NCBI GenBank assembly: GCA_018667355.1 | Contig: JABIVC010000016.1 | Span: 175,762-239,761 of the forward strand | DNA length: 64,000 nt | From: Gammaproteobacteria bacterium | GTDB taxonomy: Bacteria > Pseudomonadota > Gammaproteobacteria > GCA-002705445 > GCA-002716945 | Direction: 5' to 3' | Shown: positions 11,655 to 28,152 of the stretch, one piece after another | Numbering within the stretch: position 1 is the first letter of the stretch | Layout: every line of letters starts with the position of its first letter | Position numbers and translations under genes: made by a program | Notes under the pieces: generated by a model | Told to the model about the DNA's origin: nothing | Database searches by the model: none | Seen by the model: the letters and a program-made list of their open reading frames with translations, nothing else

Positions 11655-11655
11655 T

Positions 11656-12096: not shown

Positions 12097-13490
12097 TGAA
12101 ATATTTCCCCTTTTTTATGGAACTTAGTAAGCAGTCTGTCCTCTTGATAGGTGGTGGTGAAGTAGCTGAACGCAAATTAGATTTACTGATAAAAGCTAAT
12201 GCTAATGTAACAATCGTTTCACCAGAATTTACTTCTTATATAGAAGAGTTATTTAAAAATAAGAATATAAAGCCAATCAAGGACCATTATAATCTTAGTC
12301 ATCTTAAGAGTTCTTCTTTTGCATTTGTTATTGCTGCAACAAATGATGAATCATTAAACAAAGAAATCGCTAAAGATGCTAATGACAATAATATATTAGT
12401 TAATGTAGTTGATAAACCAAAAATATGCGATTTTATATTTCCTTCCATTTTAGAAAGGGGACCTATCACAGTTGCTGTATCTACAGGAGGATCATCTCCA
12501 GTACTTGCTCGCATGCTTAGAACTAAACTTGAAACAATGATACCAGGCGCTTATGGAAGATTAGCAAAGATAGTATCTGAAAATAGAATTCCTGTAAGGA
12601 AAAAATTAGTCAATTCTAAATCTAATGGAATCTTCTGGGAACAAATGTTGAATGGCAAATTCCTAGAGTTGGTTTTAAGTGGCCAGGATGAAGAAGCCGT
12701 GACTTTTTTAAATACAGAAATTAATAATTTTGATGAGCAGAAAAAGGGAGAAGGAGAAGTATATCTAGTTGGTGCCGGACCAGGTGATCCAGATTTATTA
12801 ACTTTTAGAGCACTACGTTTAATGCAACAAGCAGATGTTGCTCTTTATGATAGATTAGTTCATCCATCAATTATCGACTTAATTAGGAGAGATGCACAGA
12901 AAATATATGTCGGGAAACAAAGAGACAATCATACTGTTCGACAAGAAGAGATTAATGAATTGCTTGTCAAATATGCTAAAGAGGGCAATAGAGTTTTACG
13001 ACTTAAAGGAGGGGACCCTTTTATCTTTGGTCGAGGTGGTGAAGAGATAGATTCGTTGGTTGATAACAATATTTCTTTTCAGGTTGTCCCAGGCATAACA
13101 AGTGCAAGCGGATGCTCTGCTTATAGTGGTATTCCTCTAACACATAGAGATTATGCTCAATCTTGTATATTTGTCACCGGACATCTTAAAAAAGGAAAAT
13201 TAGAGTTAAATTGGGAGAAACTGATACAACCTAACCAAACTATTGTTTTTTATATGGGTCTTGTCTCTATTAATATTATTTGTTCAAAACTTATAGAATT
13301 TGGTTTAGATCGAAAAACACCATGCGCTCTAGTAGAGCAAGGTACTACCCAAAATCAGAAAGTATATACATCAACAGTTGAGCAGATGAATGATTTGGTA
13401 GAGAGAGAGAAACCTCATGCCCCTACCATATTTATAATTGGTCATGTTGTTACATTAAGAGAAAAATTAAATTGGTATAAAACTGACTAA
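12096..13490 (+). CDS. cysG: Siroheme synthase (multifunctional precorrin-2 dehydrogenase / ferrochelatase / uroporphyrinogen-III C-methyltransferase)
   Basis: N-terminal Rossmann LLIGGGEVAERK and C-terminal methylase motifs VYLVGAGPGDPDLLTFRAL and GGDPFIFGRGGEE. Confidence 0.9.
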   Translation: MKYFPFFMELSKQSVLLIGGGEVAERKLDLLIKANANVTIVSPEFTSYIEELFKNKNIKPIKDHYNLSHLKSSSFAFVIAATNDESLNKEIAKDANDNNILVNVVDKPKICDFIFPSILERGPITVAVSTGGSSPVLARMLRTKLETMIPGAYGRLAKIVSENRIPVRKKLVNSKSNGIFWEQMLNGKFLELVLSGQDEEAVTFLNTEINNFDEQKKGEGEVYLVGAGPGDPDLLTFRALRLMQQADVALYDRLVHPSIIDLIRRDAQKIYVGKQRDNHTVRQEEINELLVKYAKEGNRVLRLKGGDPFIFGRGGEEIDSLVDNNISFQVVPGITSASGCSAYSGIPLTHRDYAQSCIFVTGHLKKGKLELNWEKLIQPNQTIVFYMGLVSINIICSKLIEFGLDRKTPCALVEQGTTQNQKVYTSTVEQMNDLVEREKPHAPTIFIIGHVVTLREKLNWYKTD

Positions 13491-14050
13491 TTGTTATTCA
13501 GTCTAAAGTTAATAGGTATTGTCAATGAAATTGATTCTTTCTTAATTGAATCAGGAATTCTGGGGAAAGGGGATGACATCATAATCATTCTCCTGGCTTC
13601 TCTATCCAAAGAACGATATCCAGATGATTTAATACTTAAGTTTGTTACTACACCATTTTTTAATATAGTAAACGTAACGGTAGGAGTACCCTGTTCTTTT
13701 CTTTGACGAGATAATAAAGGATATTTTTTATTAGCATCTATTATCTGCCTAACTTTCCCATAGTAGGTATCATAGGTATATTCTGATTGTTCTCCAACCT
13801 CTCTATTATCCATTAACATTTCCTGATCTTTTTCCGTGTCTTCGGTTTTATTTCTTATTTCTTCTGAGGCTATACTTTTTTCATAAATTTCATCACTCTT
13901 GTTTAATACCATCATCTGTATAGTCATCCCTGTTTCACCGATAGTTGTGATGTCATTAACTGTTTTAGGCATAGAAAATGAAAATAAAAAAAGAGAGTGA
14001 ATTGCAAATGCAATTATTAAATACTTATTTAAGCTTGATGAATCATTCAT
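13487..14050 (-). CDS. tonB: Energy transducer TonB
   Basis: N-terminal TM segment, Glu/Lys-rich linker, and a TonB C-terminal domain (GTPTVTFTILKNGVVTNLSIKSSGYRSLDREARRMI). Confidence 0.75.
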   Translation of the reverse strand: MNDSSSLNKYLIIAFAIHSLFLFSFSMPKTVNDITTIGETGMTIQMMVLNKSDEIYEKSIASEEIRNKTEDTEKDQEMLMDNREVGEQSEYTYDTYYGKVRQIIDANKKYPLLSRQRKEQGTPTVTFTILKNGVVTNLSIKSSGYRSLDREARRMIMMSSPFPRIPDSIKKESISLTIPINFRLNNN

Positions 14051-14438
14051 TTTTATTAGAGAGTAATGTTACATTAGTTATTTGACTATCATTTAAGATT
14101 AAAAGAACTTTATTTAATGCACTAGATTCAAGTGATCCATCTGCAGCTATTATAATACTATCTGTTTTAAGTAATATTAATTTCTCTTTAAGCACATATT
14201 TATCAATAGGTTGATCATTTAAAGTTATAGATTCATTGGCATTAATAAATAATGTATTTTTATCTTTTTCACTATATTCTTCAAGTGCTGCAGATGCCAG
14301 ATTTACATTATGTAATTCTTTCTGCTTAACTATAACCCCTGCTAACATAAAAAATATTAATAATAAAAATATTATATTAACAAGAGGAAGTAGGCTATCC
14401 TCATTATTTGAAGCTTGTTTTTTTATTTTTATTTTCAT
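14043..14438 (-). CDS. exbD: Biopolymer transport protein ExbD/TolR (copy 1)
   Basis: LLPLVNIIFLLLIFFM TM signature of ExbD/TolR. Overlaps tonB start by 8 nt. Confidence 0.8.
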   Translation of the reverse strand: MKIKIKKQASNNEDSLLPLVNIIFLLLIFFMLAGVIVKQKELHNVNLASAALEEYSEKDKNTLFINANESITLNDQPIDKYVLKEKLILLKTDSIIIAADGSLESSALNKVLLILNDSQITNVTLLSNKNE

Positions 14439-14444
14439 AATAAC

Positions 14445-14888
14445 TTATAGTTTTTTTAAAAGTGGTAATTTTACGGGTTTTTTTGATTTGTCATAGGCAT
14501 CATTTTGATCAGAATCATCCTTAATGACACCTAAGGTTACATTATCTATGTCACTGGATTTCAAGTTAGATATCACGCTTAACATGAGCTGAACATCTGC
14601 ACCTTTGGCTGGCTTTGCTATAACAATAAAATCGTCGTTATTTTTTTTACTCGAAATGATATCAGATTTGATAGAGTCCAAACTTGCCTCTGTCCCATTC
14701 AATTTAAACTCGCTGTCTTTATTAAATTCTATTAAAAATACCTTTTTATCACTTTGAGAAACACTAGCATTTTCATTCGAGATTTTTATATCTGTTTTAT
14801 TAAATGATTGAAAATTAGTAGCTAACATAAAAAATATTAGGAGAATGAATACTACATCAATTATTGGTGTTAGGCTTATTTTAGTCAT
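14445..14888 (-). CDS. exbD: Biopolymer transport protein ExbD/TolR (copy 2)
   Basis: LTPIIDVVFILLIFFML signature; paralog of the adjacent gene. Confidence 0.8.
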   Translation of the reverse strand: MTKISLTPIIDVVFILLIFFMLATNFQSFNKTDIKISNENASVSQSDKKVFLIEFNKDSEFKLNGTEASLDSIKSDIISSKKNNDDFIVIAKPAKGADVQLMLSVISNLKSSDIDNVTLGVIKDDSDQNDAYDKSKKPVKLPLLKKL

Positions 14889-14983
14889 TTTGTCTCTCGT
14901 TCAAGAGGTAATTCTATATAAATTATTATCAGATGTCATATATTAGCATATTTTATAATCTAAATAAGAAGCATTCGTGTTTA

Positions 14984-15003
14984 CAAATGAGAATCATTCG
15001 CAT
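14984..15003. promoter_or_regulatory. Fur-box-like operator in the divergent exbD-tonB / TonB-dependent receptor intergenic region
   Basis: caAATGAgAATCATTcgCa matches 13 of 16 positions of the central part of the Fur consensus GATAATGATAATCATTATC. Confidence 0.5.
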
Positions 15004-15083
15004 ATAATAACGTAGTTATCAATATTCAGGGTGATTTTGCCATGAATTATTGATGTTATTTATATAAATATGAGAAAAATTTA

Positions 15084-17324
15084 ATGAATAAAACATATTT
15101 TAAAGGATATATAGTTGCTTCACTGATGGCTATCAGTTTACCAATTATTGCAGAAGAAATGAGTCCTGTAAGTGTTTTCGGATCACAAGACGAAACACAA
15201 CAAGCTGGTTCAGCTCATTTTATTAGTGATAATGAAATGAAAAGCAAAGGCTATACAGATGCTGAAAGGGTCTTAGGACGTATTCCTGGAGTATACTCCC
15301 AAACTGAAGATGGTTATGGGCTTAGAACTAATATAGGTATGCGAGGAACAAGTGCTCTGAGAACAACAAAGATTAATGTTCTAGAAGATGGTGTGCCACA
15401 AGGTCCTGCTATTTATTCTAATGGGAGTATGTATTTCTTCCCTGATGTTGGTCGTATGGAAGGAGTTGAAGTTTTGAAAGGACCGGCAGCAATAGGTAAT
15501 GGTCCTAGAACTACTGCTGGTACAATTAACTTTTTATCACGTTCTATACCTACTATTGATAGCGAAGGATACTATTCTATAACTATGGGCGATGATGGCT
15601 TTTCAAGAAACCATACATACTACGGTGGGAACATAGGGTCTGTTGGTTACGTTTTTGAGTACCATGATTATAGAGCAGATGGTTATAAAAACATTAAAGG
15701 TGCTGGTAATACCGATGCTGGTTTTGACAAACAAACTGATTTAGTTAAGTTTAGCTATACACCATCAAATAGTTCATGGAATCAAGCTTTTGAGCTAACA
15801 AGTTCAAATACAACAGAAACATCTAATGAAACTTATATTGGGTTAACTGGAACAGACTTCCAAGCAGACCCATTCCAGAGATATGGCGCTTCATCGGTCG
15901 ATCAAATGGATAATGATTATCATAGATATATATTTACTCATACAATGCAACCATCTGCTAATATGAAAATTACATCTAAACTTTATAAAACCAGATATAG
16001 TCGTCTTTGGGGTAAAAGTGGTGAAATGTATGTAGACCCAGATGGTGAAGGAACTGGTACATTAACAAAGGTAAAATTTTCTGCTATCGATATGGCTGGA
16101 AACTGTGCAGGTGACACCGGTGCTGAGCTAAGAGCATGTAATATTTTAACAAATAATACAGCAATGCTTGGTAGCGAGTATATCAAAAGATCGATGGGTC
16201 ATCGTGATTATGGTATGACAGGTGTCCAATTTGTAATTAACCATGACATTGGCAATCATGCTCTTGAGTATGGATACAGACGTCATAAAGATTACAGAGA
16301 AAGACATGATGCAGACTACTATCAAAAATATACTATAAACGCAGCTGGAACTATGAGTCTAATGCCAAGCGGTAATATTCGTGGTGCTACCACAACTACA
16401 GCTGCTGAACTCAAAGACACAGACGCATCATCTTGGCATTTGAAAGATGTTATCTCTGCAGGAGCATTTACTCATACTCTTGGTATTCGATATGAAGACA
16501 CAGAGAAGAATGATGGTACTAATGCAGTACCTGGTAACGCTAAGAAAGATGTCAAAGATACCGCAACTATGATGGCTGCATCCACTGTTTATAACATGGG
16601 TGGCGGTCAATCTATGTTTGCTGGTTTTAGTGAAGGACACAGCCCAGTAGATGCTGGATCAGCTGCTTCAATAGAGCCTGAAAAATCTGATAACTATGAA
16701 ATTGGTTACAGAAAACAAAGCGCTGGTAGCTTCTTAGAGGTAATTGCTTTCTATAACGACTACAGTCAGTTAATAGAAACTTGCTTAACTGCAAACGGGT
16801 GTACTGGTACTCAAGGTACTACTACCAATAAAGGTTCAGCAGAAGTTGAAGGCATTGAATTTCAATACAAACTTGACAATATGTTTGCTAAACCTCAAAT
16901 GAAAGGTATGGCTTCACATAGCTCAGTAAGATATCCATTAACAATCAGCGGTATGTTGCAAAGCTCTGAATATACAGGTCAAAACCTTGCTATTAATGGA
17001 AAATCAATTGCATATGTACCTGATTTTCAACTGTATACATCAATAGGTATGGAGACTAACGATTGGAGCATCGCTCTAGGCGCTAAATATCATGATGATA
17101 CATTTACTGATGATACAAATATTTATAGAACTGGCAAAGCATTCATTTTTGATTTGTCTAGTGGTATGAATATTCCTGTAAACTCAAATGGTATTAAAAA
17201 TGCGAGAGTATTTTTAAACGTAGACAACTTATTTGATAAAGTCATCGTGGCTTCAGAACATGAGTATGGTAAACGTCCTAACAAACCATTATCAGTAATG
17301 GCAGGAGTACAATTCGATTTTTAA
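15084..17324 (+). CDS. TonB-dependent outer-membrane receptor
   Basis: Signal peptide, plug-domain motifs, long beta-barrel with C-terminal aromatic residue (…GVQFDF). The substrate cannot be assigned. Confidence 0.85.
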   Translation: MNKTYFKGYIVASLMAISLPIIAEEMSPVSVFGSQDETQQAGSAHFISDNEMKSKGYTDAERVLGRIPGVYSQTEDGYGLRTNIGMRGTSALRTTKINVLEDGVPQGPAIYSNGSMYFFPDVGRMEGVEVLKGPAAIGNGPRTTAGTINFLSRSIPTIDSEGYYSITMGDDGFSRNHTYYGGNIGSVGYVFEYHDYRADGYKNIKGAGNTDAGFDKQTDLVKFSYTPSNSSWNQAFELTSSNTTETSNETYIGLTGTDFQADPFQRYGASSVDQMDNDYHRYIFTHTMQPSANMKITSKLYKTRYSRLWGKSGEMYVDPDGEGTGTLTKVKFSAIDMAGNCAGDTGAELRACNILTNNTAMLGSEYIKRSMGHRDYGMTGVQFVINHDIGNHALEYGYRRHKDYRERHDADYYQKYTINAAGTMSLMPSGNIRGATTTTAAELKDTDASSWHLKDVISAGAFTHTLGIRYEDTEKNDGTNAVPGNAKKDVKDTATMMAASTVYNMGGGQSMFAGFSEGHSPVDAGSAASIEPEKSDNYEIGYRKQSAGSFLEVIAFYNDYSQLIETCLTANGCTGTQGTTTNKGSAEVEGIEFQYKLDNMFAKPQMKGMASHSSVRYPLTISGMLQSSEYTGQNLAINGKSIAYVPDFQLYTSIGMETNDWSIALGAKYHDDTFTDDTNIYRTGKAFIFDLSSGMNIPVNSNGIKNARVFLNVDNLFDKVIVASEHEYGKRPNKPLSVMAGVQFDF

Positions 17325-17352
17325 TTTTCATCATTCTCCGGTGGAAAATAAA

Positions 17353-17408
17353 AGAGGACGCAGGGCTTAAGAGAACTCTTAATCTCTCCCTTGAGCAAGG
17401 CGTCCTCA
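17353..17408. other. Nested stem-loop element (outer 8-bp stem GAGGACGC/GCGTCCTC enclosing inner 7-bp stem TTAAGAG/CTCTTAA)
   Basis: Perfect inverted repeats read directly from the sequence between the receptor gene and exbB. Confidence 0.5.
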
Positions 17409-17431
17409 CTATGAATTCATAACCTCGTTGA

Positions 17432-17462
17432 AAGCCCATAAGATGTGTTTTATGGGCTTTCA
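17432..17462. other. Strong hairpin (AAAGCCCATAA...TTATGGGCTTT) without a U-tract
   Basis: 11-bp perfect inverted repeat. It lacks a T-run on either strand, so it is not a canonical intrinsic terminator. Confidence 0.5.
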
Positions 17463-17576
17463 TACATTCGATATAATATCCATATTCTTAGCAAATTAGT
17501 TTCATGCTAAATTATATGATTTAGATGATGATATTAAATATAATTCCTCTAAAATATAGGCACATGGAAAAATATT

Positions 17577-18206
17577 ATGGAAGTTAATTCACTTTTAAAT
17601 CTTGGCGGCCCAATAGTATATATACTTCTTGTATTGTCTATTTATGCGACTGCTATTATTCTCTATAAGTTACACATTTTCTACAAAGTACAATTCTTTA
17701 AATCAGATATAACAGTTAAAAGCATTAATCTATGGCTTTCAGATAATCATAATGATGCATATGAATCGATTAACAATGTTAATGATCCACAAGCTGAAGT
17801 TGTATCTTTTGCAATGTATCAGCTACTTAAACATAAAAAACTCACTGTGAAAACTGAGAACGATATACGCGAAGAAATTACAAGGCTTTCAGATGAAAGA
17901 ATTAATAATTACAGTTCAAACCTTAATAGTTTGCAAGTAATCGCAACTATTGCTCCTTTATTAGGGTTATTAGGGACTGTTTTCGGTATGATCGAAGCCT
18001 TTCAGCAAATGGAAATGGCAGGTAAAAATGTTGACCCTTCTATTTTATCAGGTGGCATATGGGAAGCTTTATTAACAACCGCAGCAGGTTTATCAGTTGC
18101 GATACCAATAGTTGTTTTCGAATCTTACTTCAGAAATCTTATTGATACCTTTAAAAATAATATTGAAAATGCAGTGACAAAGGTACTAACATCACAAATT
18201 AATTAA
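17577..18206 (+). CDS. exbB: MotA/TolQ/ExbB proton-channel protein
   Basis: Three TM helices with the ExbB signature SGGIWEALLTTAAGLSVAIPIVVFESYFRN. Confidence 0.8.
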   Translation: MEVNSLLNLGGPIVYILLVLSIYATAIILYKLHIFYKVQFFKSDITVKSINLWLSDNHNDAYESINNVNDPQAEVVSFAMYQLLKHKKLTVKTENDIREEITRLSDERINNYSSNLNSLQVIATIAPLLGLLGTVFGMIEAFQQMEMAGKNVDPSILSGGIWEALLTTAAGLSVAIPIVVFESYFRNLIDTFKNNIENAVTKVLTSQIN

Positions 18207-18661
18207 CCACAGCAGCCCATACCAAACTTTTTTAATCTCCAGTAATTATATGGCCATGGAGTTAAAAAACCAGCAGTGAGCATGAATGGGATGACATAGA
18301 GATTTATTTTAGCTCCTCCAGTAATTAGAATATCTGTAATATTCATAGCCAATTCCATGCTGATCATAGAAATAAGACTCATACCAAATGCTGTTTTTAT
18401 TGCAGATTTCAGTTTCATTTGTTTTAACAATATTATTGTTTCAAGTATTATGCTTGAGACTATCCCATTAAACATTGCTAGTGCCATGATTGATAAGGTT
18501 GACCATGGAATTGCATTTACCTGGAAATAATATATTGTCATCATATCTCCGAAGCTACACCCTACCAAACACCAAAATGTATTGATAGCTGACTGACCCC
18601 ATGTATGTTTACATTTCCAGTTAAAGGCATTACTTTTCTTTATCATTATAAATCCAGCCAA
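18203..18661 (-). CDS. Membrane protein, DUF4396-like
   Basis: Hydrophobic 152 aa protein with CLVGCSFGDM, reminiscent of DUF4396. It is the last gene of a 5-gene minus-strand operon. Confidence 0.35.
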   Translation of the reverse strand: MAGFIMIKKSNAFNWKCKHTWGQSAINTFWCLVGCSFGDMMTIYYFQVNAIPWSTLSIMALAMFNGIVSSIILETIILLKQMKLKSAIKTAFGMSLISMISMELAMNITDILITGGAKINLYVIPFMLTAGFLTPWPYNYWRLKKFGMGCCG

Positions 18662-18978
18662 AGTTTTTTAGGTTGTCTCATACCAGCAATTTTACATGCT
18701 TGCTGACCATATCCATAAGGAAATAATTTATAAATATATTTTCTTGTTGATTTATCAGCACCATATTCATTTTTAAAATATTTTAGCAGATATCTTAGTT
18801 CTGGAACTTTTTGGTGTTCATCAAAATACTTTCGAATATACTTTATAACAATCCAATGATTTTTGCTTAACTCAGTCCTGAATTCTTTGGCAACTGTTTC
18901 TGCATGTTGAATATTCCAATCTGATGGATCTAGTAAGAAACCATCACTATCTTTTGCTGGAATGAATACATTATTCAT
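18646..18978 (-). CDS. DsrC/TusE-family protein retaining only the internal cysteine (CysB-like); C-terminal Cys absent
   Basis: MNNVFIPAKDSDGFLLDPSDWNIQHAETVAK...LFPYGYGQQACKIAGMRQPKKLWLDL aligns with bona fide DsrC (…LFPYGPGKQACKFAGLPKPTGCV), but the terminal GCV is replaced. Start taken at the second Met, since the 19002 start would overlap the Rieske gene by 32 nt. Confidence 0.7.
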   Translation of the reverse strand: MNNVFIPAKDSDGFLLDPSDWNIQHAETVAKEFRTELSKNHWIVIKYIRKYFDEHQKVPELRYLLKYFKNEYGADKSTRKYIYKLFPYGYGQQACKIAGMRQPKKLWLDL

Positions 18979-19276
18979 CAATAAAAATATGACCTTTTTC
19001 AATTAAAGTTTTATATGTTATGATTGGCTCGTCAGCTGGTTCATTTAATGCTTTGCCAGATTTTAAGTCAAAATAACTCCCATGCAATGGACATTTTACC
19101 TTAGTTCCATCAAGACATCCCATAGTCAGTTCTGCATCTTCATGAGTACACATATCAGATGTTACATAAATATTATTATCAATCTTTGCAATTAAATAAT
19201 TTTTAGAATTTATAGTTGCCTGAATCATTTCTCCATTCACTATATCATTTACATGTGCAACTTTAACTTTAGCCAT
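18971..19276 (-). CDS. Rieske [2Fe-2S] ferredoxin (small NirD-like protein)
   Basis: CTHEDAELTMGCLDG...CPLHGSYFD matches the CxH...CxxH Rieske motifs. Confidence 0.8.
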   Translation of the reverse strand: MAKVKVAHVNDIVNGEMIQATINSKNYLIAKIDNNIYVTSDMCTHEDAELTMGCLDGTKVKCPLHGSYFDLKSGKALNEPADEPIITYKTLIEKGHIFIDE

Positions 19277-19277
19277 C

Positions 19278-20393
19278 TTATTTTTTGAACCGTTTTAATG
19301 CGCTACCTGAACTCAGTACTTGGTTAACTTCTTTTGAACATGATTCGATACTATTATTAGTAACATGACTTAGAATTATGGTTGCACCATATAAAATACA
19401 GTCTCTCATAACACCATCAGATCCAGACAATGCATCCATTCCCATTTTTAGTGATTCTTTAGCTAAGTCTATTGGATTTACTTTTGTCTCAATTTTGTCA
19501 ATCGAAATATTTTTTTCAAACGAACTTGGTATTGTGACAGCTCGGACTTCTTGTTTAATATTTAAATCTATTTCTGGATTTATTTCTAATAATTCATTTT
19601 CATCTAGTATATTTTTATAATAATAAGCATTAGCCTTCTGTCTTAATGATGGTATTACGCCACCCTCTGTTCCACGAATAACAATTGAAGAATCAAAGTT
19701 TGCATTTCTAGCCAGCATTAAATAAATTGGAGGATATGGTTTATGCACATACCCTGTTACAAAATGATTTCTTTTTGAAATTAATGGGTTTGCTAAAACC
19801 TCTATAGTTGTAACAACAGGCCTTTTAATTATTTCTGTCCTCAGTTCCATTAGATTATTCAGTTGAGGAGAAAAAACTTTTTGGTCTATATAGCCCCAGC
19901 CTATATTTTTATCTTCTATCCTCTCTATAATTTGTTCATGAGTGGAGTACACATCTAATCCTAATAATTTAAAGATAGCATGATGTGTGCAGCCAAACTT
20001 TGGACCTACAGTCTTAACTCCTTGAGAAATAGATGGAATTCCGAGTTCTGCTAGAACGGGTAATATATATGCAGAAGATGGTATGTTTCTTGTAAAACCA
20101 TCATATGGATCAGCAATGTTCACAAGATTATCAACATTAACATCCATCTTTTTGACTGAATTTATCATAGCATCATGGACACCTAGATTTTCATCATGAG
20201 TCTCTCTTTTCATCCTAAGTGCGATTAAAAATATAGCTGAACGTACGTCGCTAATTTCTCCATTCAATATTGCAGACATGGATGCTTTGGCTTCCTCTCT
20301 GCTGATATTTTTACTAAGATCTGGACCAGTTGCTATTCTTTGAATAACTGATTTCATTAGTTCAGATGAAGTTATATTTTTTTTATCGGACAT
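19278..20393 (-). CDS. TrpD2/YbiB-like protein (glycosyltransferase family 3 fold with degenerate anthranilate-PRT active site)
   Basis: N-terminal helical domain ISREEAKASMSAILNGEISDVRSAIFLIALRMKRET matches the TrpD N-terminal domain. The GTGGD/KHGN catalytic motifs are replaced (ADPYDG...KTVGPKFG). Confidence 0.6.
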   Translation of the reverse strand: MSDKKNITSSELMKSVIQRIATGPDLSKNISREEAKASMSAILNGEISDVRSAIFLIALRMKRETHDENLGVHDAMINSVKKMDVNVDNLVNIADPYDGFTRNIPSSAYILPVLAELGIPSISQGVKTVGPKFGCTHHAIFKLLGLDVYSTHEQIIERIEDKNIGWGYIDQKVFSPQLNNLMELRTEIIKRPVVTTIEVLANPLISKRNHFVTGYVHKPYPPIYLMLARNANFDSSIVIRGTEGGVIPSLRQKANAYYYKNILDENELLEINPEIDLNIKQEVRAVTIPSSFEKNISIDKIETKVNPIDLAKESLKMGMDALSGSDGVMRDCILYGATIILSHVTNNSIESCSKEVNQVLSSGSALKRFKK

Positions 20394-20986
20394 TATTTAA
20401 AAACTATCCAAGTTGTTGCTATATATTTAATATCTTTTTTGAGTGTAACACCGCGATGTTCATGAGTCCAAAAAGGAGGAAACAGAATTAACTTTCCTGC
20501 TTCTGGTTTAATCTTTACATTTTGATGTAAAAATTCTGTTTCACCACCTGGGCCTATAACATCATTCAAGTACCAAATAGCAACCATTTGTCTATCACTA
20601 AATTGATGACTCCCGCTATCAATATGCCAGTGAAAAAATTCCCCTGGCTTTGTTCTCTGTACTGCATAACCAATATCTTTAAATGGTCCTGTAAAAAAAT
20701 CAAATTGCTTTTTTACTCCACTTAATGCCTTAGCTAAACTTGTGAAAAGTAAGTCATCAACATCTTTCCAGTTCTCTTTCCCGCTCACAACCATGTCAGT
20801 AGATTTTTTGATATCTAAATTCTCCTCAAATGTTTGTCCTACTCTTCCTTGATAATGATCTTCCTCAGAATCTTCAAATCTATTGATTATATCTAGACAG
20901 TCCTCACTAGAAATACTATTGGAAAATTCAAAAATAAAACTATTAGGTTTGACCTCTATTAATCTTTTGTCTAGCTGAATATCCAA
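20393..20986 (-). CDS. Fe(II)/2-oxoglutarate-dependent oxygenase (prolyl-4-hydroxylase-like superfamily)
   Basis: HWHIDSG (HxD) and distal FWTHEHRG His form a 2-His-1-carboxylate facial triad pattern. Translationally coupled (ATGA overlap) to the TrpD2-like gene. Confidence 0.6.
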   Translation of the reverse strand: MDIQLDKRLIEVKPNSFIFEFSNSISSEDCLDIINRFEDSEEDHYQGRVGQTFEENLDIKKSTDMVVSGKENWKDVDDLLFTSLAKALSGVKKQFDFFTGPFKDIGYAVQRTKPGEFFHWHIDSGSHQFSDRQMVAIWYLNDVIGPGGETEFLHQNVKIKPEAGKLILFPPFWTHEHRGVTLKKDIKYIATTWIVFK

Positions 20987-21068
20987 TTACTTATCCTGTT
21001 CATTTATATTCTTGGTTGTTGTGTGTATAGTATAAAATATTACTAATATATAATGAAGAAAATTAGTC

Positions 21069-21629
21069 ATGGTAATAAGAATTAAAAGCAATTGGTCCAA
21101 GACCGTTAAACGGGAAAAAACTAGCGAAGATATAGCTAGTGCCTTATCTTATATTGGATGGAAATTATCACTTGATAAAGCGCGTAACCTCCATGGGGAC
21201 GACTTTGATTATTCTTCTGATCATCAGCGCATTACTGTTATCGTAGAATTTATGTCATTTCAGGTACATCTAGCCGATAGACTCTTATATCAGAGTAAAA
21301 AGACAGATGACTATAGAATATCAGTCATGAATAATCTAGGACAACAGTCTGCCAGGATAATGCAAGAAAATTGCGAGGATCTATTTGGCGATGGAAATTA
21401 TAGAGAGGGCTATATCAATACTCTTAATATAAGATCCGGGGAATATTCTCATTATGAATTTACAAAATCATCTGGAAATTATTCTCTTTATCGACATCTA
21501 GCTAAAAAAATACAAGATGCGATGGGATCTAGCCAGACTAATAAATGGGTTATGGACCAGATAGTCGATATAGATGCCGTAGAGATTTGTAAGAAGTTTA
21601 TAGAAGTTTACGAATCTTTAACCAAGTAA
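21069..21629 (+). CDS. Hypothetical protein
   Basis: 186 aa ORF with no motif I recognise. Divergent from the 2OG-oxygenase operon. Confidence 0.4.
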   Translation: MVIRIKSNWSKTVKREKTSEDIASALSYIGWKLSLDKARNLHGDDFDYSSDHQRITVIVEFMSFQVHLADRLLYQSKKTDDYRISVMNNLGQQSARIMQENCEDLFGDGNYREGYINTLNIRSGEYSHYEFTKSSGNYSLYRHLAKKIQDAMGSSQTNKWVMDQIVDIDAVEICKKFIEVYESLTK

Positions 21630-21638: not shown

Positions 21639-21833
21639 TTATTTTTTAAAATTTTTTGCGTTATTAATGGTCTTATTCTCGCCATCTTCATAGCCAGCTT
21701 CATAAGCATCACTGAGCCTTTGTTCTTCTATTTTAGGACTATTTTGATAACCTTCTTGCCAGCCTATAATATAATCATCAGACGCATTCATGTCTTCAAG
21801 TTCTGTTACTTTTTTAAAATAATCATTATTCAT
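21639..21833 (-). CDS. Small acidic hypothetical protein (64 aa)
   Basis: Last ORF of a tightly coupled minus-strand operon (ATGA overlap with the upstream 74 aa ORF). Confidence 0.35.
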   Translation of the reverse strand: MNNDYFKKVTELEDMNASDDYIIGWQEGYQNSPKIEEQRLSDAYEAGYEDGENKTINNAKNFKK

Positions 21834-22057
21834 TATGTTCTTATAGACCCCTTTAGTTCATGTGCAATGTCTACCAGACGGTTGGCTAACTTCTCATGCG
21901 TTTCTTTATATTCTTTTACAATGCCCACTGGATTTAAATGGATGTCTTTCTCGGTAACGCCAGTACTTCTCTCAAGCTCCATAAACTCTTTTTGAATTCT
22001 TAATAATGTCGCAATTATAGTTTTTCTTTCTTCTTCTAGTTTTTTAATATCACTCAT
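21833..22057 (-). CDS. Small coiled-coil hypothetical protein (74 aa)
   Basis: Predicted helical/coiled-coil protein (KLEEERKTIIATLLRIQKEFMELER). Its start overlaps the stop of the RspA-like gene. Confidence 0.4.
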   Translation of the reverse strand: MSDIKKLEEERKTIIATLLRIQKEFMELERSTGVTEKDIHLNPVGIVKEYKETHEKLANRLVDIAHELKGSIRT

Positions 22058-22407
22058 TAGTATCCACCTTTTCTCCTACTTTCTGGCAAGCCACCTATTC
22101 TACCAGCTTGTTTACTAGGATTACCAGGAAATAAGTCGAATAATGTTTTAGTATCAATTTTTTCACCCCACAACTTTCCTAAATCTTTGACCATGTTTCT
22201 AGTATTAGGCTGATTTTCTTTGTTATTGATGAACTCGTCTCTTAGGTAGTTAATTACGTCCCAGTGCCTTTCTGTTAGTTCTATTTCCTCTTGTATCGCA
22301 ATAACTTTGGCTATATCTTCATTCCAGTCTTCGAGCTTAACTAGAAAGCCTGTTTCAGATGTTTCGATTAATTGACCATTTACCTCTACTTTCATTGGAA
22401 GCTCCAT
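22057..22407 (-). CDS. DsrC/TusE-family protein lacking both conserved cysteines (RspA-like)
   Basis: MELPMKVEVNGQLIETSETGFLVKLEDWNEDIAK...DLFPGNPSKQAGRIGGLPESRRKGGY is collinear with DsrC, but CysB is Gly and the C-terminal GCV is GGY. Confidence 0.75.
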   Translation of the reverse strand: MELPMKVEVNGQLIETSETGFLVKLEDWNEDIAKVIAIQEEIELTERHWDVINYLRDEFINNKENQPNTRNMVKDLGKLWGEKIDTKTLFDLFPGNPSKQAGRIGGLPESRRKGGY

Positions 22408-22480
22408 CTAATCCTGATTTTTATATATGAAAATTCTAATATACTAGGAGAAATATGTCCATATTGATTTTGACTAATAG

Positions 22481-23149
22481 TTAGTCTTCTTTGAAGTTTG
22501 GGACCGCATCTATTGACTTATGAGGTAACAATATTCCACATCCGTAAATTCTGCCACCTCCAATGCCTAAATCTTGAAGAAGTATAGAGTGTTCTTTAGA
22601 TAAATCAGCAATCATGAGGCTTCTTGTAAATTTATGTTTTCCCATTAAAATTATACTTTTTGTTTTGCCACATATAGCTTTTTTTATATGTATTCCATGC
22701 ACACTCAACTGATTTTTAATTTCTAATAGAAAATTTTCTTCTGTTTGATCAGGATCACAGAGAACAGATCTACAAATCAAATCTTTGACAACAAGGAATG
22801 GTTTCACAATAGATATGCCAATTTTTATATCATTTTTTAAAACATTTAGAGTAGAGCCTTCTATTAGCCGCACCTTATCAATATCAGTTTTAGGAATTCT
22901 TAATATAAGTCTAGTTCTTTTGGATAAAAATATTTGATCTTTTTCAGAGCGAACCCAACCATTCCCAAAATCAGGCCCATGAAGAGTATGAACACCGATA
23001 GATTTGTTTTCTAGCATCCAAGGAGCTAGATTAGTTATAGCATTTGATAATTCTGAAACATGGTCATATGGTAATATCTTACATTCAATTTTAAATGCAA
23101 CATCTGCCATCATAGATTTTTCTTCTACCTTTTCTTCTTCTTCCCACAT
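22481..23149 (-). CDS. Protein with Cas6e(CasE)-like C-terminal glycine-rich loop; putative RAMP/RRM-fold RNA-binding protein, no CRISPR context
   Basis: C-terminus SILLQDLGIGGGRIYGCGILLPHKS closely parallels the E. coli CasE C-terminus ALIDLVQQGIGPAKSMGCGLLSLAPL (G-rich loop GhG-x5-GCG-hL). An N-terminal PYDH motif is a possible catalytic-His region. Acidic N-terminal extension; the true start may be the MMADV Met. Confidence 0.45.
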   Translation of the reverse strand: MWEEEEKVEEKSMMADVAFKIECKILPYDHVSELSNAITNLAPWMLENKSIGVHTLHGPDFGNGWVRSEKDQIFLSKRTRLILRIPKTDIDKVRLIEGSTLNVLKNDIKIGISIVKPFLVVKDLICRSVLCDPDQTEENFLLEIKNQLSVHGIHIKKAICGKTKSIILMGKHKFTRSLMIADLSKEHSILLQDLGIGGGRIYGCGILLPHKSIDAVPNFKED

Positions 23150-23151
23150 AA

Positions 23152-23343
23152 TTATTTAATATAACTACTAAAAGCTGACTCTATTTTATCTTCCCAGTTT
23201 TCTGGTGTATCTGGGAATGGGGGTTTTAAATCAATCCTTATGAAAATTTCACCGTCTTTAGCTCTAATTTTAACTACTTCTAATAGCTCCTTAAAAGTTT
23301 CAATATCTTTTTCGTCTATAAGTAAACTGCTTAAATATAACAT
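23152..23343 (-). CDS. Small hypothetical protein (63 aa)
   Basis: Coupled on both sides, between the TauD-like and Cas6e-like genes. Confidence 0.35.
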   Translation of the reverse strand: MLYLSSLLIDEKDIETFKELLEVVKIRAKDGEIFIRIDLKPPFPDTPENWEDKIESAFSSYIK

Positions 23344-24191
23344 TACACTTCCATTCTCTTTTTAGATCTTAATCTATATAGGAGCCTATTCTTTTTTTCC
23401 AAATTTGTAAACGGTGTACGCATATGGATAACATTATTTGTTATAACGCCCTGCCCCTCTGTGAATTTATGTGTAATGTGGTATTCATCAGAATTATTAA
23501 CAATATTTTTTAGATTACTTGCAGCTTTTTGGGATTTATCATTCCACAATATATTTTTCTCTCTCATAGTGAATTTCATATGTAATTTGCCATTAATGAA
23601 TGAGAATATAGGACTGTCAACAGCCTTTCTCTGAGTGTGTGTATTTTCAGGGATTGTATATGTGTTATGTAACATTAAATCACTAATATTATTATAAGCT
23701 TCATTAAATAATATATATGCTATTTCATGATCCATATATTTATTCATACCACCACTTTCAGATTGTGTTCTACAGAATAAAATCCATGAGAGTATAAGGT
23801 TTTCATTATTATTATAATATCCATCCGTATGCCAATTCAGTTTTTTATTTGTATATGGAATATATTCAGCGTTTGATTGATGTTTACTGTGAATTTTGAT
23901 CTCTGTTAGGCCATCATCATCTGATTTTGAGTCTATCTCATAATTACCAAGTCCAATTTGGGACCCCATGATTTTTATGGCTGCTTTTAAATCCGTGGCT
24001 TCTTTATCTATCTGAAAAAAGACAATATTATGCTGATTTATTATGTTAGACATATATGTTTTTTCAGGTTTGGTAAGGGAGCTGGGATTGTTAATTTCCA
24101 CAATTAAATCATCGATTTTATTGGAAAATCTCTCTAGTTTTTTATCAGCCCAGAGTTTATAATCATTTCTAGGAATCTCAAGTATGTTCAT
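23343..24191 (-). CDS. TauD/TfdA-family Fe(II)/2-oxoglutarate dioxygenase
   Basis: WHTDGYY (HxD of the facial triad, as in TauD WHTD) and C-terminal ...NNVIHMRTPF (distal His and Arg that binds 2OG). First gene of the operon, divergent from dsrA. Confidence 0.6.
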   Translation of the reverse strand: MNILEIPRNDYKLWADKKLERFSNKIDDLIVEINNPSSLTKPEKTYMSNIINQHNIVFFQIDKEATDLKAAIKIMGSQIGLGNYEIDSKSDDDGLTEIKIHSKHQSNAEYIPYTNKKLNWHTDGYYNNNENLILSWILFCRTQSESGGMNKYMDHEIAYILFNEAYNNISDLMLHNTYTIPENTHTQRKAVDSPIFSFINGKLHMKFTMREKNILWNDKSQKAASNLKNIVNNSDEYHITHKFTEGQGVITNNVIHMRTPFTNLEKKNRLLYRLRSKKRMEV

Positions 24192-24322: not shown

Positions 24323-25576
24323 TTGAAAAAGCACGATACACCAATGTTAGATGAACTAGAAAACGGGCCATGGCCTAGTTTTATTAGTGGGATTAAGAGA
24401 CTAAGAGACTCTCATCCTGAAGAAAGAATTAATGAAATGACAAATGACTTATTGGGTCAATTAGAACATTCATATGAGACAAGAAAAGGTTATTGGAAAG
24501 GCGGTACTGTAAGTGTTTATGGTTATGGCGGCGGAATAATACCTCGTTTCTCAGAGGTAGGTGATGCGTTTCCTAAATCTAAAGAATTTCATACACTACG
24601 CGTACAACCTCCTGCTGGGAATTTCTATACAACGGACATACTTAGAAAAATGGCTGATAGCTGGGAAAAATATGGCTCAGGGTTAGTTACTTTTCATGGC
24701 CAAACTGGAAATATTATGTTTATAGGGTCAACTTCTGATGCTACCCAACATTTTTTTGACGAAATCAATGAATATGGTTTTGATTTAGGTGGAGCTGGAC
24801 CATGCGTTAGAACAGCAATGTCATGTGTTGGTGCTGGAAGATGTGAAATGTCCAACATCAATGAACATAAAGCTCATAGGTTGCTAGTAAATAATTTTAT
24901 AGATGATATGCATAGACCTGCATTACCATATAAATTTAAATTCAAGGTTTCTGGATGTGCAAATGATTGTATGAATTCTATTGAAAGAGCAGACATGTCA
25001 ATTATTGGGACATGGAGAGATGACATTAAAATTGACCAAAAAGAATTTAAAGAATATGTTGAATTAAAAGGAAGAAAGCATGTAATAGATAATATTATTA
25101 CAAGGTGCCCAACAAATGCTATTTCTCTAAACGATGATGATACAGTGTCTATAGATAATCAAAATTGCGTAAAATGTATGCATTGCTTAAATGTAGTTCC
25201 AAAAGCTCTTCATCCTGGTGATGATAAGGGAGCTACTGTATTAATGGGTGGTAAAAGAACTCTTAAAATTGGTGACTTAATGGGAACTGTGATTGTCCCA
25301 TTTATGAAACTAGAATCACAAGAAGACTGGGATAGGCTAGTTGAAATTGCTGAGGAATCAATAGATTTCTGGGCAGATAATGCTCTTGAGCATGAAAGAT
25401 GTGGTGAGATGATTGAAAGAATCGGCCTTGTAAACTTTTTAGAAGGCATAGGAATTGATGTAGATCCAAATATGGTTGGAAATCCAAGGGAATCTAGTTA
25501 TTTTAGAGGTGATGGATGGGACGGCGAAGCAGTCAAGTGGTATGAACGCGCAGATGCGGATAAGGATTCTGCTTAA
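24323..25576 (+). CDS. dsrA: Dissimilatory sulfite reductase alpha subunit (reverse/oxidative type)
   Basis: TTG start at 24323 (RBS GGGAG 7 nt upstream) gives MKKHDTPMLDELENGPWPSFISG, collinear with DsrA N-termini. Sirohaem and [4Fe-4S] Cys clusters (CVGAGRC...C) and ferredoxin-like CPTNA...C. Confidence 0.9.
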   Translation: MKKHDTPMLDELENGPWPSFISGIKRLRDSHPEERINEMTNDLLGQLEHSYETRKGYWKGGTVSVYGYGGGIIPRFSEVGDAFPKSKEFHTLRVQPPAGNFYTTDILRKMADSWEKYGSGLVTFHGQTGNIMFIGSTSDATQHFFDEINEYGFDLGGAGPCVRTAMSCVGAGRCEMSNINEHKAHRLLVNNFIDDMHRPALPYKFKFKVSGCANDCMNSIERADMSIIGTWRDDIKIDQKEFKEYVELKGRKHVIDNIITRCPTNAISLNDDDTVSIDNQNCVKCMHCLNVVPKALHPGDDKGATVLMGGKRTLKIGDLMGTVIVPFMKLESQEDWDRLVEIAEESIDFWADNALEHERCGEMIERIGLVNFLEGIGIDVDPNMVGNPRESSYFRGDGWDGEAVKWYERADADKDSA

Positions 25577-25590
25577 AGAGAAATAAAATT

Positions 25591-26679
25591 ATGACAGAAG
25601 TTAAAGAAAAAAAACAACAAAGATCACCAATAGAAACTGGTGCACCAGATGGTTTCCAATATATGCATCCAACAATGCGTAAAAATTTTGGTCAATGGAA
25701 ATGGCATGATCATCCAAGACCGGGAGTCTTGAGGCATGCGGCAAACAGCGGCGACGAGATATGGACAGTTAGAGCTGGAACTCAAAGAATTTTGGATGTA
25801 TTCACTTTACGTACATTATGTGACATTGGTGACAAGTATGCAGATGGTTTTGTGAGATTTACAATAAGAAGTAACATTGAGTATATGGTCAAAGATGCAT
25901 CTAAAGTTGACCCATTGATTGAAGCACTTGAAAAAGAAGGTTTTATTGTAGGTGGTACTAAAAATAGTGTTGCTATGATATCTCATACACAAGGATGGTT
26001 GCATTGTGATATTCCAGGAACAGATGCCTCCGGTGTTGTTAAAGCAATGATGGATGAATTAATAAATGAATTTAAGAACAATGATATGCCTAATAGAGTG
26101 CATATGACTACATCATGTTGCCAAATTAATTGTGGAGGTCAGGGAGACATAGCAATTAACATACAGCATACTAAGCCACCTAAAATAAACCATGATTTAG
26201 TATCAAATGTGTGTGAAAGACCTAGTGTTGTTGCTAGATGTCCTGTAGCAGCAATCAGACCAGCAATGGTAAATGGTAAAGCTTCATTAGAGGTTGATGA
26301 AAAGAAATGTATATGTTGCGGAGCTTGTTTCCCACCATGTCCACCAATGCAAATAAATGATCCAGAGCATAGTAAATTAGCTATATGGGTTGGTGGTAAT
26401 CACTCAAATGCACGTAGTAAGCCAACATTCCAAAAACTAGTGGCAGCTGGAATACCAAATAATCCCCCAAGATGGCCAGAGGCTACTGCAATTGTTAAGA
26501 AAATTCTTAAAAAGTATAAAGAAGATGCTAAAGATTGGGAACGCATCAATGATTGGATTGAGAGAATTGGCTGGCCAAGATTCTTTGAGCTCACTGAATT
26601 ACCATTTACTAAATATCACATTGATAATTGGCGTGGTGGTAGAAAGACCCTAAACTCATCTACCTACATTAGATTTTAA
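25591..26679 (+). CDS. dsrB: Dissimilatory sulfite reductase beta subunit
   Basis: Sulfite reductase beta Cys motifs (TSCCQINCGG, CPVAAIRP, CICCGACFPPCPP). Directly downstream of dsrA. Confidence 0.9.
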   Translation: MTEVKEKKQQRSPIETGAPDGFQYMHPTMRKNFGQWKWHDHPRPGVLRHAANSGDEIWTVRAGTQRILDVFTLRTLCDIGDKYADGFVRFTIRSNIEYMVKDASKVDPLIEALEKEGFIVGGTKNSVAMISHTQGWLHCDIPGTDASGVVKAMMDELINEFKNNDMPNRVHMTTSCCQINCGGQGDIAINIQHTKPPKINHDLVSNVCERPSVVARCPVAAIRPAMVNGKASLEVDEKKCICCGACFPPCPPMQINDPEHSKLAIWVGGNHSNARSKPTFQKLVAAGIPNNPPRWPEATAIVKKILKKYKEDAKDWERINDWIERIGWPRFFELTELPFTKYHIDNWRGGRKTLNSSTYIRF

Positions 26680-26692
26680 ACAAGGACTGTTT

Positions 26693-27771: not shown

Positions 27772-27787
27772 ATTAGAGGAGTAAATT

Positions 27788-28120: not shown

Positions 28121-28152
28121 CCTTTATACCAATTATAAGGAGAGATTAAGGT

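Follow-up and report, generated by a model that had tools for sequence, protein, structure and literature searches.

A TrpD-fold protein and a Rieske-type ferredoxin encoded in a five-gene operon beside the dsr cluster of a marine gammaproteobacterium

The 64,000-nucleotide stretch of gammaproteobacterial DNA analyzed here (contig JABIVC010000016.1 of assembly GCA_018667355.1, positions 175,762 to 239,761; hereafter the window) carries a genuine, translationally coupled five-gene operon at 18203-20986 on the minus strand, in the neighborhood of a dsr gene cluster. Comparative analysis shows that the evolutionary core of this operon consists of two genes, which code for a TrpD-fold protein and a low-potential Rieske [2Fe-2S] ferredoxin. 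The TrpD-fold protein represents a third, uncurated branch of the fold, being neither an anthranilate phosphoribosyltransferase (TrpD) nor a member of the YbiB family. The window has a low guanine-plus-cytosine (GC) content of ~32% and contains a complete dsrABEFHCMKLJOPN cluster at 24323-36643 on the plus strand, which ends with the IscA-like gene dsrR at 36287-36643. Thus, the host is a Dsr-type sulfur oxidizer, and it is a low-GC marine gammaproteobacterium.

Organization of the operon and its conserved core

Analysis of the open reading frames (ORFs) of the window showed that all five genes are intact and located on the minus strand. In the direction of transcription, they encode a prolyl 4-hydroxylase (P4H)-like 2-oxoglutarate (2OG)- and Fe(II)-dependent oxygenase (20393-20986; 197 amino acids from a TTG start, with AGGA 8 nt upstream), the TrpD-fold protein of the uncurated branch, in which the phosphoribosyl pyrophosphate (PRPP) and Mg motifs are replaced (19278-20393; 371 amino acids, ATG start), the Rieske-type [2Fe-2S] ferredoxin (18971-19276; 101 amino acids, ATG start), a paralogue of the DsrC/TusE family with CysB only (18646-18978; 110 amino acids from ATG, the ORF reaching a TTG at 19002) and a DUF4396 membrane protein (18203-18646; 147 amino acids from ATG, the ORF reaching a TTG at 18661). 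The P4H-like and TrpD-like genes share a 1-nt TAATG overlap, the TrpD-like and Rieske genes are separated by a 1-nt gap, the Rieske and DsrC-like genes overlap by 8 nt (ATGAATAA), and another 1-nt TAATG overlap joins the DsrC-like gene to the DUF4396 gene. Based on these tight junctions we conclude that the five genes are translationally coupled.

A preliminary description of this DNA had proposed five minus-strand genes at this position, which is confirmed by the ORFs, the Pfam matches and the public gene calls. Its domain assignments were also correct, with each of the five proteins scoring far above the Pfam gathering score. The same description had the TrpD-like and oxygenase genes fused by an ATGA overlap; an overlap exists, but it is the single nucleotide of TAATG, and the genes are coupled rather than fused. 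Identical products, lengths and junctions were found in the public gene calls of three independent assemblies, including NCBI GCA_018670925.1. The gene order is repeated in 10 related genomes at TrpD-like identities of 59-86%, which is beyond chance, and the genes are thus syntenic rather than scattered.

To place the operon in a broader context, one genome per GTDB species was scanned. Relatives of the TrpD-like protein were identified in at least 576 species, and the best 80 loci (designated by L-numbers) were examined, with the neighboring genes located by tblastn using the window proteins. Named records among these 80 are mostly sulfur-oxidizing Gamma- and Betaproteobacteria, including Thiodiazotropha, Thiobacillus, Thiocystis violacea, Thioglobus, Ruthturnera, the Bathymodiolus SOX symbiont, Sedimenticola, Thiogranum, Acidiferrobacterales, Hydrogenophilus and Arenicellales. 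In 56-57 of the 80 loci, a same-strand Rieske gene was located at most 250 bp from the TrpD-like gene, 42 times downstream and 14 times upstream, and the CxH…CxxH ligands were intact in 54 of 56 such adjacent Rieske proteins. The pairing is kept across ~45% identity. On five further Pfam-annotated contigs, the junctions between the two genes ranged from a 4-nt overlap to a 10-nt gap.

The five-gene type of layout was confined to the ten closest genomes (L001-L010), which form one low-GC marine clade. The order in this clade is P4H, TrpD-like, Rieske and/or DsrC-like, and DUF4396, with ExbB on one flank and orf186, orf64, orf74, a second DsrC-like gene, a Cas6-like gene, orf63, a TauD-like gene and dsrAB on the other; the layout is also present on a long-read contig. 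The P4H and DUF4396 genes are clade-specific, and both are under strong purifying selection with their catalytic and Cys motifs intact. The DsrC-like gene was found only in the window, L001, L004 and L006 and was absent from L002, L003, L005 and L007-L010. It takes the place of the missing Rieske gene in L004 and L006. Taken together, the adjacency counts and the clade-limited occurrence of the other genes show that the unit conserved broadly is the TrpD-like gene with the Rieske gene, and that the other three genes are lineage-specific additions.

A second clade, here called group B (L029, L030, L037, L038, L040, L047, L056, L059 and L066), contains the TrpD-like gene without an adjacent Rieske gene, followed by an orthologue of orf64. 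In five of these loci, orf186 is divergent from a P4H-like gene, in some cases with a DUF6866 gene in between, and a GNAT gene follows, all within 1-5 kb of the TrpD-like gene; L038 adds genes for a PKHD hydroxylase, orf74 and a DsrC-like protein that lacks Cys. Between the window clade and group B, the P4H-like proteins are 62-69% identical, as compared to 43-47% for the TrpD-like proteins. The two clades were not sisters in a neighbor-joining tree of the TrpD-like proteins. Since non-sister clades share this gene set, the association of P4H-like, orf186, orf64 and TrpD-like genes is recurrent.

The TrpD-fold protein

Profile searches with the TrpD-like protein gave only partial or low-scoring matches. 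The single Pfam match was to the N-terminal helical domain (PF02885, 2.9e-15). The top curated model was NF005635/PRK07394 ("hypothetical protein"), with 137.1 bits against a cut-off of 287, followed by NF006005 (YbiB) with 97.1 bits against 185, covering residues 14-258 only, and by TIGR01245 (trpD) with 67.8 bits against 199. Ten further representatives of the family fell below every NCBIfam cut-off, with 94-206 bits for PRK07394. A profile built from 13 family members matched solved TrpD and YbiB about equally, at 67 and 62 bits, respectively. The two-domain TrpD/NP-II fold is kept in the AlphaFold2 model (mean predicted local distance difference test score, pLDDT, 86), for which the top Foldseek matches were the TrpD structures 4hkm, 1zyk and 5c2l (E 1e-15 to 1e-18, template modeling score 0.7-0.8).

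The catalytic elements of TrpD, taken from PMC9835598, were compared with the family by HMMER and MAFFT alignment. The GTGGD(G) motif of the β1-α5 phosphate/anthranilate loop is replaced by (A)DPYDG, the KHGN motif of the ribose-binding loop by S(Q/H)GV (SQGV in the window protein), and SSKSGSAD by GPK(F/Y)GxTH. The GxDGxDE motif between β5 and β6, which holds the Mg2+ ligands, has become RGTEGGV(I)P, with DE changed to VI in the window protein. The resulting motifs of the window protein are DPYDG95-99, SQGV123, GPKFGCTH130-137, KRPVVTT190, VHKPYP216 and RGTEGG240. Across 13 aligned family members, DPYDG, GPKxGxTH, KRPxxTTxEVL, TGYVHKPYP and RGxEGGxxPSL are invariant, as are W-x-Y-x-DQ and several Arg residues. 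These new invariant motifs are located exactly in the active-site loops of TrpD, which suggests that the ligand pocket has been kept but re-specified. A search of 1.84 billion cluster representatives with the TrpD-like protein returned 306 representatives at E<=1e-30, and GTGGD was present in none of the 150 that were listed. The preliminary description had reported that the 371-residue protein has lost the GTGGD and KHGN PRPP-binding motifs; the alignment bears this out, shows that the DE pair is lost too, and finds replacements at all of the catalytic TrpD elements that were compared.

These results bear on two alternative identities of the protein, one as an ordinary TrpD and the other as a nucleic-acid binder of the TrpD2/YbiB type. 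The former, according to which the protein belongs to the tryptophan pathway and the operon is a chance juxtaposition, draws on the fold and on public annotations that name relatives "anthranilate phosphoribosyltransferase". In addition to the fold, the TrpD-like protein shares with TrpD (TIGR01245; PDB 4hkm, 1zvw) the α8 Arg, the R-x-x-x-x-(K)R segment, the K-x-G of the β2-α6 loop and a Ser on α5. However, neither the Gly-rich phosphate loop nor KHGN nor the Mg-binding DE is kept, the score is far below the TIGR01245 cut-off, no other trp genes lie nearby, and the operon gene order and the Rieske pairing are kept over the ranges of identity given above. We therefore rejected the assignment as an anthranilate phosphoribosyltransferase and find this explanation hardly credible. 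The latter alternative would have the operon act on DNA or RNA, be it for stress response, for repair or for modification, and would make the oxygenase and the Rieske protein modifying or redox partners. Among the named NCBIfam models, YbiB does outscore trpD, and YbiB chains are the top single-sequence PDB matches. The TrpD-like protein also resembles E. coli YbiB (PDB 4muo, 8bfr) in having a TrpD fold without GTGGD, in a Y-[DN]-G loop and GTEG, and in that R102 and K132 are within one residue of the aligned YbiB Arg92 and Arg123. Furthermore, the neighboring operon codes for a Cas6-like protein with an RNA-binding fold and a TusE-like protein. On the other side, YbiB binds nucleic acid in strongly basic grooves, with Arg92 and Arg123 conserved, while the charge of the family lies in the neutral to acidic range (median isoelectric point 6.5 and net charge -2, as compared to an isoelectric point of 8.7 for the YbiB fragment), and its invariant residues cluster in the former small-molecule site. 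Its motifs (DPYDG, GPKxGxTH, VHKPYP) differ from those of YbiB and are much more conserved, and the window protein is ~45 residues longer, with an extra insert at ~255-305. The neighborhood signature of YbiB is the dinG helicase/LexA regulon; no dinG/helicase or LexA-type context was found next to the TrpD-like gene in the neighborhoods examined, where the partner is instead the Rieske gene. With the sub-cut-off YbiB score, the nearly equal TrpD and YbiB profile scores, the missing dinG context and the near-neutral charge, nucleic-acid binding is not indicated. The YbiB/TrpD2 membership proposed in the preliminary description was thus not upheld, and a role as a nucleic-acid binder seems unlikely.

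Of the curated groups, the uncharacterized PRK07394 proteins are TrpD-like and match the window protein over its full length, but the score is less than half of the cut-off, and the window family is a separate branch. Among more distant relatives (P0318-P0389), a group of proteins of ~420-445 amino acids, one of them from Margulisiibacteriota, carries an extra N-terminal segment of ~100 amino acids that looks like a duplicate of the helical domain (LLKKKGTGxTMSKSL). In ~10 of 60, the C-terminus is …GC[VIL], which recalls the tails of DsrC and TusE. A penultimate Cys was rejected as a trait of these ~425-residue proteins, given the small number that carry it.

The four partner proteins

The 101-residue protein is a Rieske-type ferredoxin (PF00355, 2.6e-18, 66 bits), with C43-T-H45 and C62-P-L-H65 as cluster ligands. 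Its top solved relatives are the ferredoxins of naphthalene and biphenyl dioxygenase systems (E 5e-18). Like the ferredoxins of three-component Rieske oxygenases (NdoA, BphF, HcaC and AndAb, which are among its top sequence matches), it is a soluble [2Fe-2S] protein of ~100 amino acids with a CxH…CxxH pattern. The parallel extends to the reductase in two betaproteobacterial lineages. In L050, a metagenome-assembled genome (MAG), the genes for the Rieske protein, the TrpD-like protein, a ferredoxin-FNR (Fdx-FNR) reductase and a CysB-only DsrC-like protein follow each other on one strand. The reductase (1657-3135, plus strand; 493 amino acids) combines a helix-turn-helix-like N-terminus with a plant-type 2Fe-2S domain and an FNR NAD-binding domain. 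A reductase of the same type and size is divergent from the Rieske - TrpD-like pair in L034 (5562-4150, minus strand), likewise a MAG, where it is found shortly downstream of dsrN, a dsrC-like gene and dsrR. The CysB-only DsrC-like proteins associated with these reductases end in …AGM[KR][KR]PRAWSTG. The difference from the three-component systems is that no Rieske/non-heme-iron terminal oxygenase is present, and the TrpD-fold protein is found in the position of the terminal component.

The oxygenase matched PF13640 (1.2e-12, 49 bits against 27), and its closest solved structure is the prolyl 4-hydroxylase of Bacillus anthracis (E 2.6e-4). Three segments are invariant in 16 orthologues from the two clades, namely hWH121xD123, FPPFWTH175EH177RGV and K187YIATTW. 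These include the residues of the facial triad, H121-I-D123 and H175/H177, and the basic 2OG-binding residue, K187. The C-terminal half is nearly identical across both clades. Thus, the HxD...H pattern noted previously for this protein is present as H121-x-D123 … T-H175-E-H177. There was no match to PKHD_C (PF18331) in the protein, and a PKHD-type hydroxylase of the PiuC/YbiX kind was accordingly rejected. The gene orf186 (21069..21629, plus strand), of unknown family and without any Pfam or NCBIfam match, is divergent from the P4H-like gene and co-occurs with it. The divergent arrangement was found in the window clade and in L029, L037, L038, L059 and L066; the DUF6866 and GNAT genes of group B are inserted at this pair.

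The DsrC-like protein clearly belongs to the DsrC/TusE/RspA family (PF04358, 1.3e-31, 109.7 bits against 24.9; TIGR03342, 103.7 bits against 53.5) but is below the cut-off for TusE (NF008562, 76.7 bits against 191). It shares the DsrC fold and the LFPYG…Q.CK.AG core with the family and is ~45% identical to the genuine DsrC of the window (27788-28120), which ends in …KQACKFAGLPKPTGCV. Its single cysteine, Cys95, aligns with CysB of the genuine DsrC, and CysA is absent. The C-terminus reads …QQACKIAGMRQPKKLWLDL (equally …ACKIAGMRQPKKLWLDL), so that the flexible arm with the penultimate, sulfur-carrying CysA is replaced by the conserved …GMRQPKKLWLDL. The best 120 of 982 matching cluster representatives all end in …QQ[AG]CKIAGMR.P.KL[WM]LD. 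or AGM[RK].P.KL[WM]LD (compare …AGMRQPKKLWLDL), and CysB was kept in 114 of these 120 and CysA in none. The CysB-only protein is therefore a member of a large conserved subfamily rather than an oddity of the window gene. The preliminary description was right that CysB is kept and that the C-terminal Cys arm is replaced, but the Cys complement is not unusual, since all 120 representatives share the C-terminus. DsrC carries two C-terminal cysteines, CysB and the penultimate CysA, in the pattern CxxxxxxxxxxC-x. An assignment as DsrC or TusE proper was rejected on account of the missing penultimate CysA and the low TusE score. RspA-type proteins are DsrC-like proteins devoid of the catalytic Cys arm, with regulation as their suggested role. 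DiSCo describes AGLPKPTGxC as a motif of DsrC that is not found in TusE and RspA, and the paralogue does not have it either. CysA is the sulfur-binding residue of DsrC; with this residue missing, a classical role as a sulfur carrier is unlikely, and a role as a thiol-redox or partner protein is more plausible.

This subfamily is a separate and widespread group within the DsrC/TusE/RspA family, and its orthologues occur in diverse contexts. Some are located 0-4 nt after the gene of a TauE/TSUP half-transporter, between dapB and carA, and others beside Rrf2 and CBS genes. Among 80 metagenome loci (L096-L175), the gene was found directly after a NirD-type Rieske gene in 7 and directly before a NasA-type molybdoenzyme gene in 6; it followed FeS and DmsC-like genes in 7 and was next to glutaredoxin/PpiC genes in 7 and to PrmC in 7. 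The order NirD-type Rieske - DsrC-like parallels the Rieske - DsrC-like order of the window. The notion that the paralogue is always paired with a membrane protein was rejected, as only 3-4 TauE-type and 4 DUF4396-type neighbors were seen in the same 80 loci.

The DUF4396 protein matched PF14342 over 139 of 141 profile positions (6.4e-32, 111 bits against 27). The segment WC26LxGC30SxGD, the C-terminal pair C145C146 and several polar intramembrane residues are invariant. The AlphaFold2 model is a helical bundle (pLDDT 79.5), and its search against the PDB gave no match to the fold (best E 0.2, uninformative). In another abundant marine lineage (L090/L091, 4336-5423), a 68%-identical homologue is divergent from SCO1/SenC, and this neighbor hints at a copper-related role of the family. 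The literature that we found on DUF4396 amounts to one incidental mention, in a metal-resistance island.

Proposed role and genomic context

The linkage between the TrpD-like/Rieske pair and dsr genes is recurrent and enriched, but it is not universal. Links to sulfur metabolism were seen in several lineages independently. In the window clade, dsrAB adjoins the operon region. In L034, which belongs to Burkholderiales, dsrN, a CysB-only dsrC-like gene (…CRIAGMRKPRAWSTG) and dsrR are located ~4 kb upstream of the Rieske - TrpD-like pair, and in L050 a gene of the same dsrC-like type lies downstream of the pair. A DsrL-like gene is found 5 kb from the TrpD-like gene in L059, fccAB-like genes are directly upstream of the pair in Hydrogenophilus (L036), and a periplasmic rhodanese gene is downstream of it in ~6 loci. 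Three clades keep a Sel1-repeat gene and cysG (siroheme synthase) in synteny with the TrpD-like gene, namely that of the window (11656-13490), group B and a clade of the Arenicellales type.

On this basis we tentatively favor a composite reading, in which the TrpD-like/Rieske module is possibly a ferredoxin-fed redox or ligand-processing accessory of Dsr-type cytoplasmic sulfur oxidation. The Rieske protein would pass electrons to the TrpD-like protein or to its bound ligand, or would take part in a redox-gated or redox-sensitive complex; in the two betaproteobacterial lineages, the adjacent Fdx-FNR reductase would be the source of the electrons. In the remodeled cleft, the TrpD-like protein would hold a small ligand of anionic, aromatic or nucleotide type, and it would perform neither phosphoribosyl transfer nor general DNA binding. 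Two extensions may have been added in the window clade. One is the P4H-like hydroxylase, which would depend on O2 and Fe(II), and the other is a putative thiol pair formed by the single-Cys DsrC paralogue and the Cys-rich DUF4396 protein, with a probable role at the membrane in the handling of a thiophilic species, either persulfide sulfur or Cu/metal. The recruitment of an O2-dependent hydroxylase and a thiol/metal component would fit an aerobic or micro-oxic lifestyle, as does the TauD-like dsrQ beside dsrA in the account given in PMC7596348.

Several observations weigh against this proposal. The TrpD-like protein as electron acceptor is a conjecture, given that the sequence offers no obvious redox cofactor site or conserved Cys. 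Approximately 23 of the 80 loci, including the whole of group B, lack an adjacent Rieske gene, so that the pairing is not obligatory in cis, and the reductase is a neighbor in only 2 of the 80. These loci are also the ones most similar to the query, and the seeming restriction to sulfur oxidizers may be a sampling effect; the more distant members of the family include the one from Margulisiibacteriota. Many loci are located among housekeeping genes (tpiA-secG-nuo, lolCDE, ccm, and speB-type/agmatine-pathway genes), and contexts other than sulfur oxidation are seen for DUF4396 (SCO1/SenC) and for the CysB-only DsrC subfamily (nirD-nasA). Our literature search found no biochemical or expression data on the TrpD-like/Rieske pair.

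Other readings of the operon as a whole were weighed against the same data. It could be a module for iron or copper homeostasis, with a PiuC/YbiX-like oxygenase beside a TonB receptor, the Rieske protein as an Fe-S protein and DUF4396 as a Cys-rich metal transporter, and with the dsr proximity being incidental. The block between cysG and the operon (13487-18206) indeed consists of TonB-ExbD-ExbD on the minus strand and a TonB-dependent receptor and ExbB on the plus strand, and upstream of the receptor gene, at 14983-15001, ACAAATGAGAATCATTCGC forms a weak palindrome that resembles a Fur box (13/19 matches). A gene for a MerC-family membrane protein (8732-9115, minus strand; PF03203, 1e-23) is also located in the window. 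In group B, genes for a membrane protein with a CC motif and an HMA-domain protein come right after orf64, with the PKHD hydroxylase nearby, and the SCO1/SenC neighbor and the metal-resistance island point in the same direction for DUF4396. However, no Fur box with at most 3 mismatches was found anywhere searched, including the promoter region of the operon itself, and Fur regulation of the operon was rejected, the palindrome upstream of the receptor gene being the sole candidate. ExbB is convergent and not co-transcribed with the operon, the TrpD-like/Rieske core occurs without TonB or metal genes in most lineages, and the PKHD_C domain of PiuC/YbiX is absent from the oxygenase. We consider a metal-homeostasis role improbable. 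Another possibility is that DUF4396 and the DsrC paralogue form a sulfur import and relay system like YeeE/YeeD(TusA), in which DUF4396 would bring a sulfane or thiosulfate species through the membrane to Cys95 of the paralogue and so feed the Dsr pathway, with the upstream genes being functionally separate. This would agree with the translational coupling of the two genes, with the invariant CxxxC and C-terminal CC of DUF4396 and the invariant CysB of the paralogue, with the subfamily members that follow a TauE/TSUP-type half-transporter, and with glutaredoxin as a recurrent neighbor of the subfamily and the dsr cluster adjoining the operon. Against it, most members of the window clade have DUF4396 without the DsrC-like gene, the contexts of the subfamily vary widely and mostly show no membrane link, CysA as the sulfur-carrying residue of DsrC is missing, and the DUF4396 model has no fold match to a known transporter. 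This makes a dedicated sulfur relay very doubtful. A bolder version of the accessory reading that we favor casts the TrpD-fold protein as the last member of a three-component system of a new kind, in which an NAD(P)H reductase would feed the Rieske ferredoxin and this in turn the TrpD-fold enzyme. The enzyme would perform an as yet unassigned step of Dsr-type sulfur oxidation, for example on a nucleotide-linked or cofactor-type substrate such as AMP, adenosine 5'-phosphosulfate (APS) or a siroheme derivative, and in the window clade would be tied to O2 via the P4H-like protein and to a membrane thiol relay via DUF4396 and the CysB-only DsrC. We regard this version as a long shot.

The operon contains no strongly surprising feature, and each of its domain families is known; what appears to be new is the third branch of the TrpD fold, for which there is no curated model, with a dedicated ferredoxin partner. 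Our literature search found no paper that combines TrpD or anthranilate phosphoribosyltransferase with Rieske proteins and sulfur oxidation or dsr, and none that links dsr to a TrpD-like, Rieske or P4H-like gene. Dsr-type sulfur oxidizers (relatives of SUP05, symbionts of lucinids and mussels, purple sulfur bacteria and Thiobacillus) drive much of the marine and sediment sulfur cycling, and steps around rDsr that lack assigned proteins include cytoplasmic sulfur delivery, electron routing and cofactor maturation. The pair is a testable candidate accessory for these steps, and the TrpD-like family, with its hundreds of species and its repeated location beside dsr, dsrC-like, fccAB-like, rhodanese and cysG genes, has no described function. 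If correct, the family would add a third functional branch to the TrpD fold, next to those for phosphoribosyl transfer (TrpD) and DNA binding (YbiB), which is of interest for enzyme evolution. The pipeline label "anthranilate phosphoribosyltransferase" is wrong for the family and could make the tryptophan pathway of MAGs be predicted as more complete than it is.

On the dsr side of orf186, a neighboring operon (21639-24191, minus strand) codes for a TauD-like protein, orf63, a Cas6-like protein, a Cys-less DsrC-like protein, orf74 and orf64. Its gene set is conserved beside dsrA in L001-L010, L092 and L176-L178. The two operons had been described as similar in composition, which is a fair description; both start with a 2OG oxygenase gene and both hold a gene of the DsrC family. 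The Cas6-like protein is a stand-alone Cas6/Cmx6-like protein (PF09559, 1e-48; PADLOC Cas6, 2e-55), and no CRISPR array was found in the 64-kb window. The passage of PMC7596348 that cites Lenk et al. 2012 gives dsrQ as a TauD-like gene divergent from dsrA, in connection with an aerobic or micro-oxic lifestyle. The neighboring operon begins in the same way, with a TauD-like gene divergent from dsrA. dsrQ belongs to PF02668, a family of 2OG oxygenases other than that of the P4H-like protein, and has no place in the five-gene operon. With a gene of the dsrQ type beside dsrA, oxygenase genes that flank dsr are a known theme in aerobic sulfur oxidizers.

The P4H-like gene and orf186 are separated by an intergenic region of 82 bp (20987..21068), from which they diverge and which is a probable promoter region. 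The window, L001, L004 and L006 share a conserved stretch of it, TTTTATACTATACAC. Promoter and terminator scans performed no better than on shuffled sequences, and no Rfam element or riboswitch was matched in the 64 kb. A phage or defense origin was rejected; a search of 2.9 M viral contigs gave nothing related to the TrpD-like gene. In the same contigs, the P4H-like gene had one 25% match, in a giant-virus MAG, and PADLOC matches were limited to a generic 2OG model and the Cas6-like neighbor.

Farther from the operon, the Sel1-repeat and cysG genes of the window form an operon with a glutaredoxin gene (~11400-13490, plus strand). In group B, genes for a MoxR AAA+ protein and a DUF2201/VWA protein and an unknown 370-residue gene are located between the Sel1/cysG genes and the TrpD-like gene. 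The dsr cluster of the window is followed, on the opposite strand, by the housekeeping genes ispH, fkpB, lspA, ileS, ribF and murJ. A DEAD-box helicase gene (3693-5378) has, in the part for its C-terminal tail, a perfect tandem repeat of three 54-bp units (5126-5285), corresponding to an 18-residue repeat.

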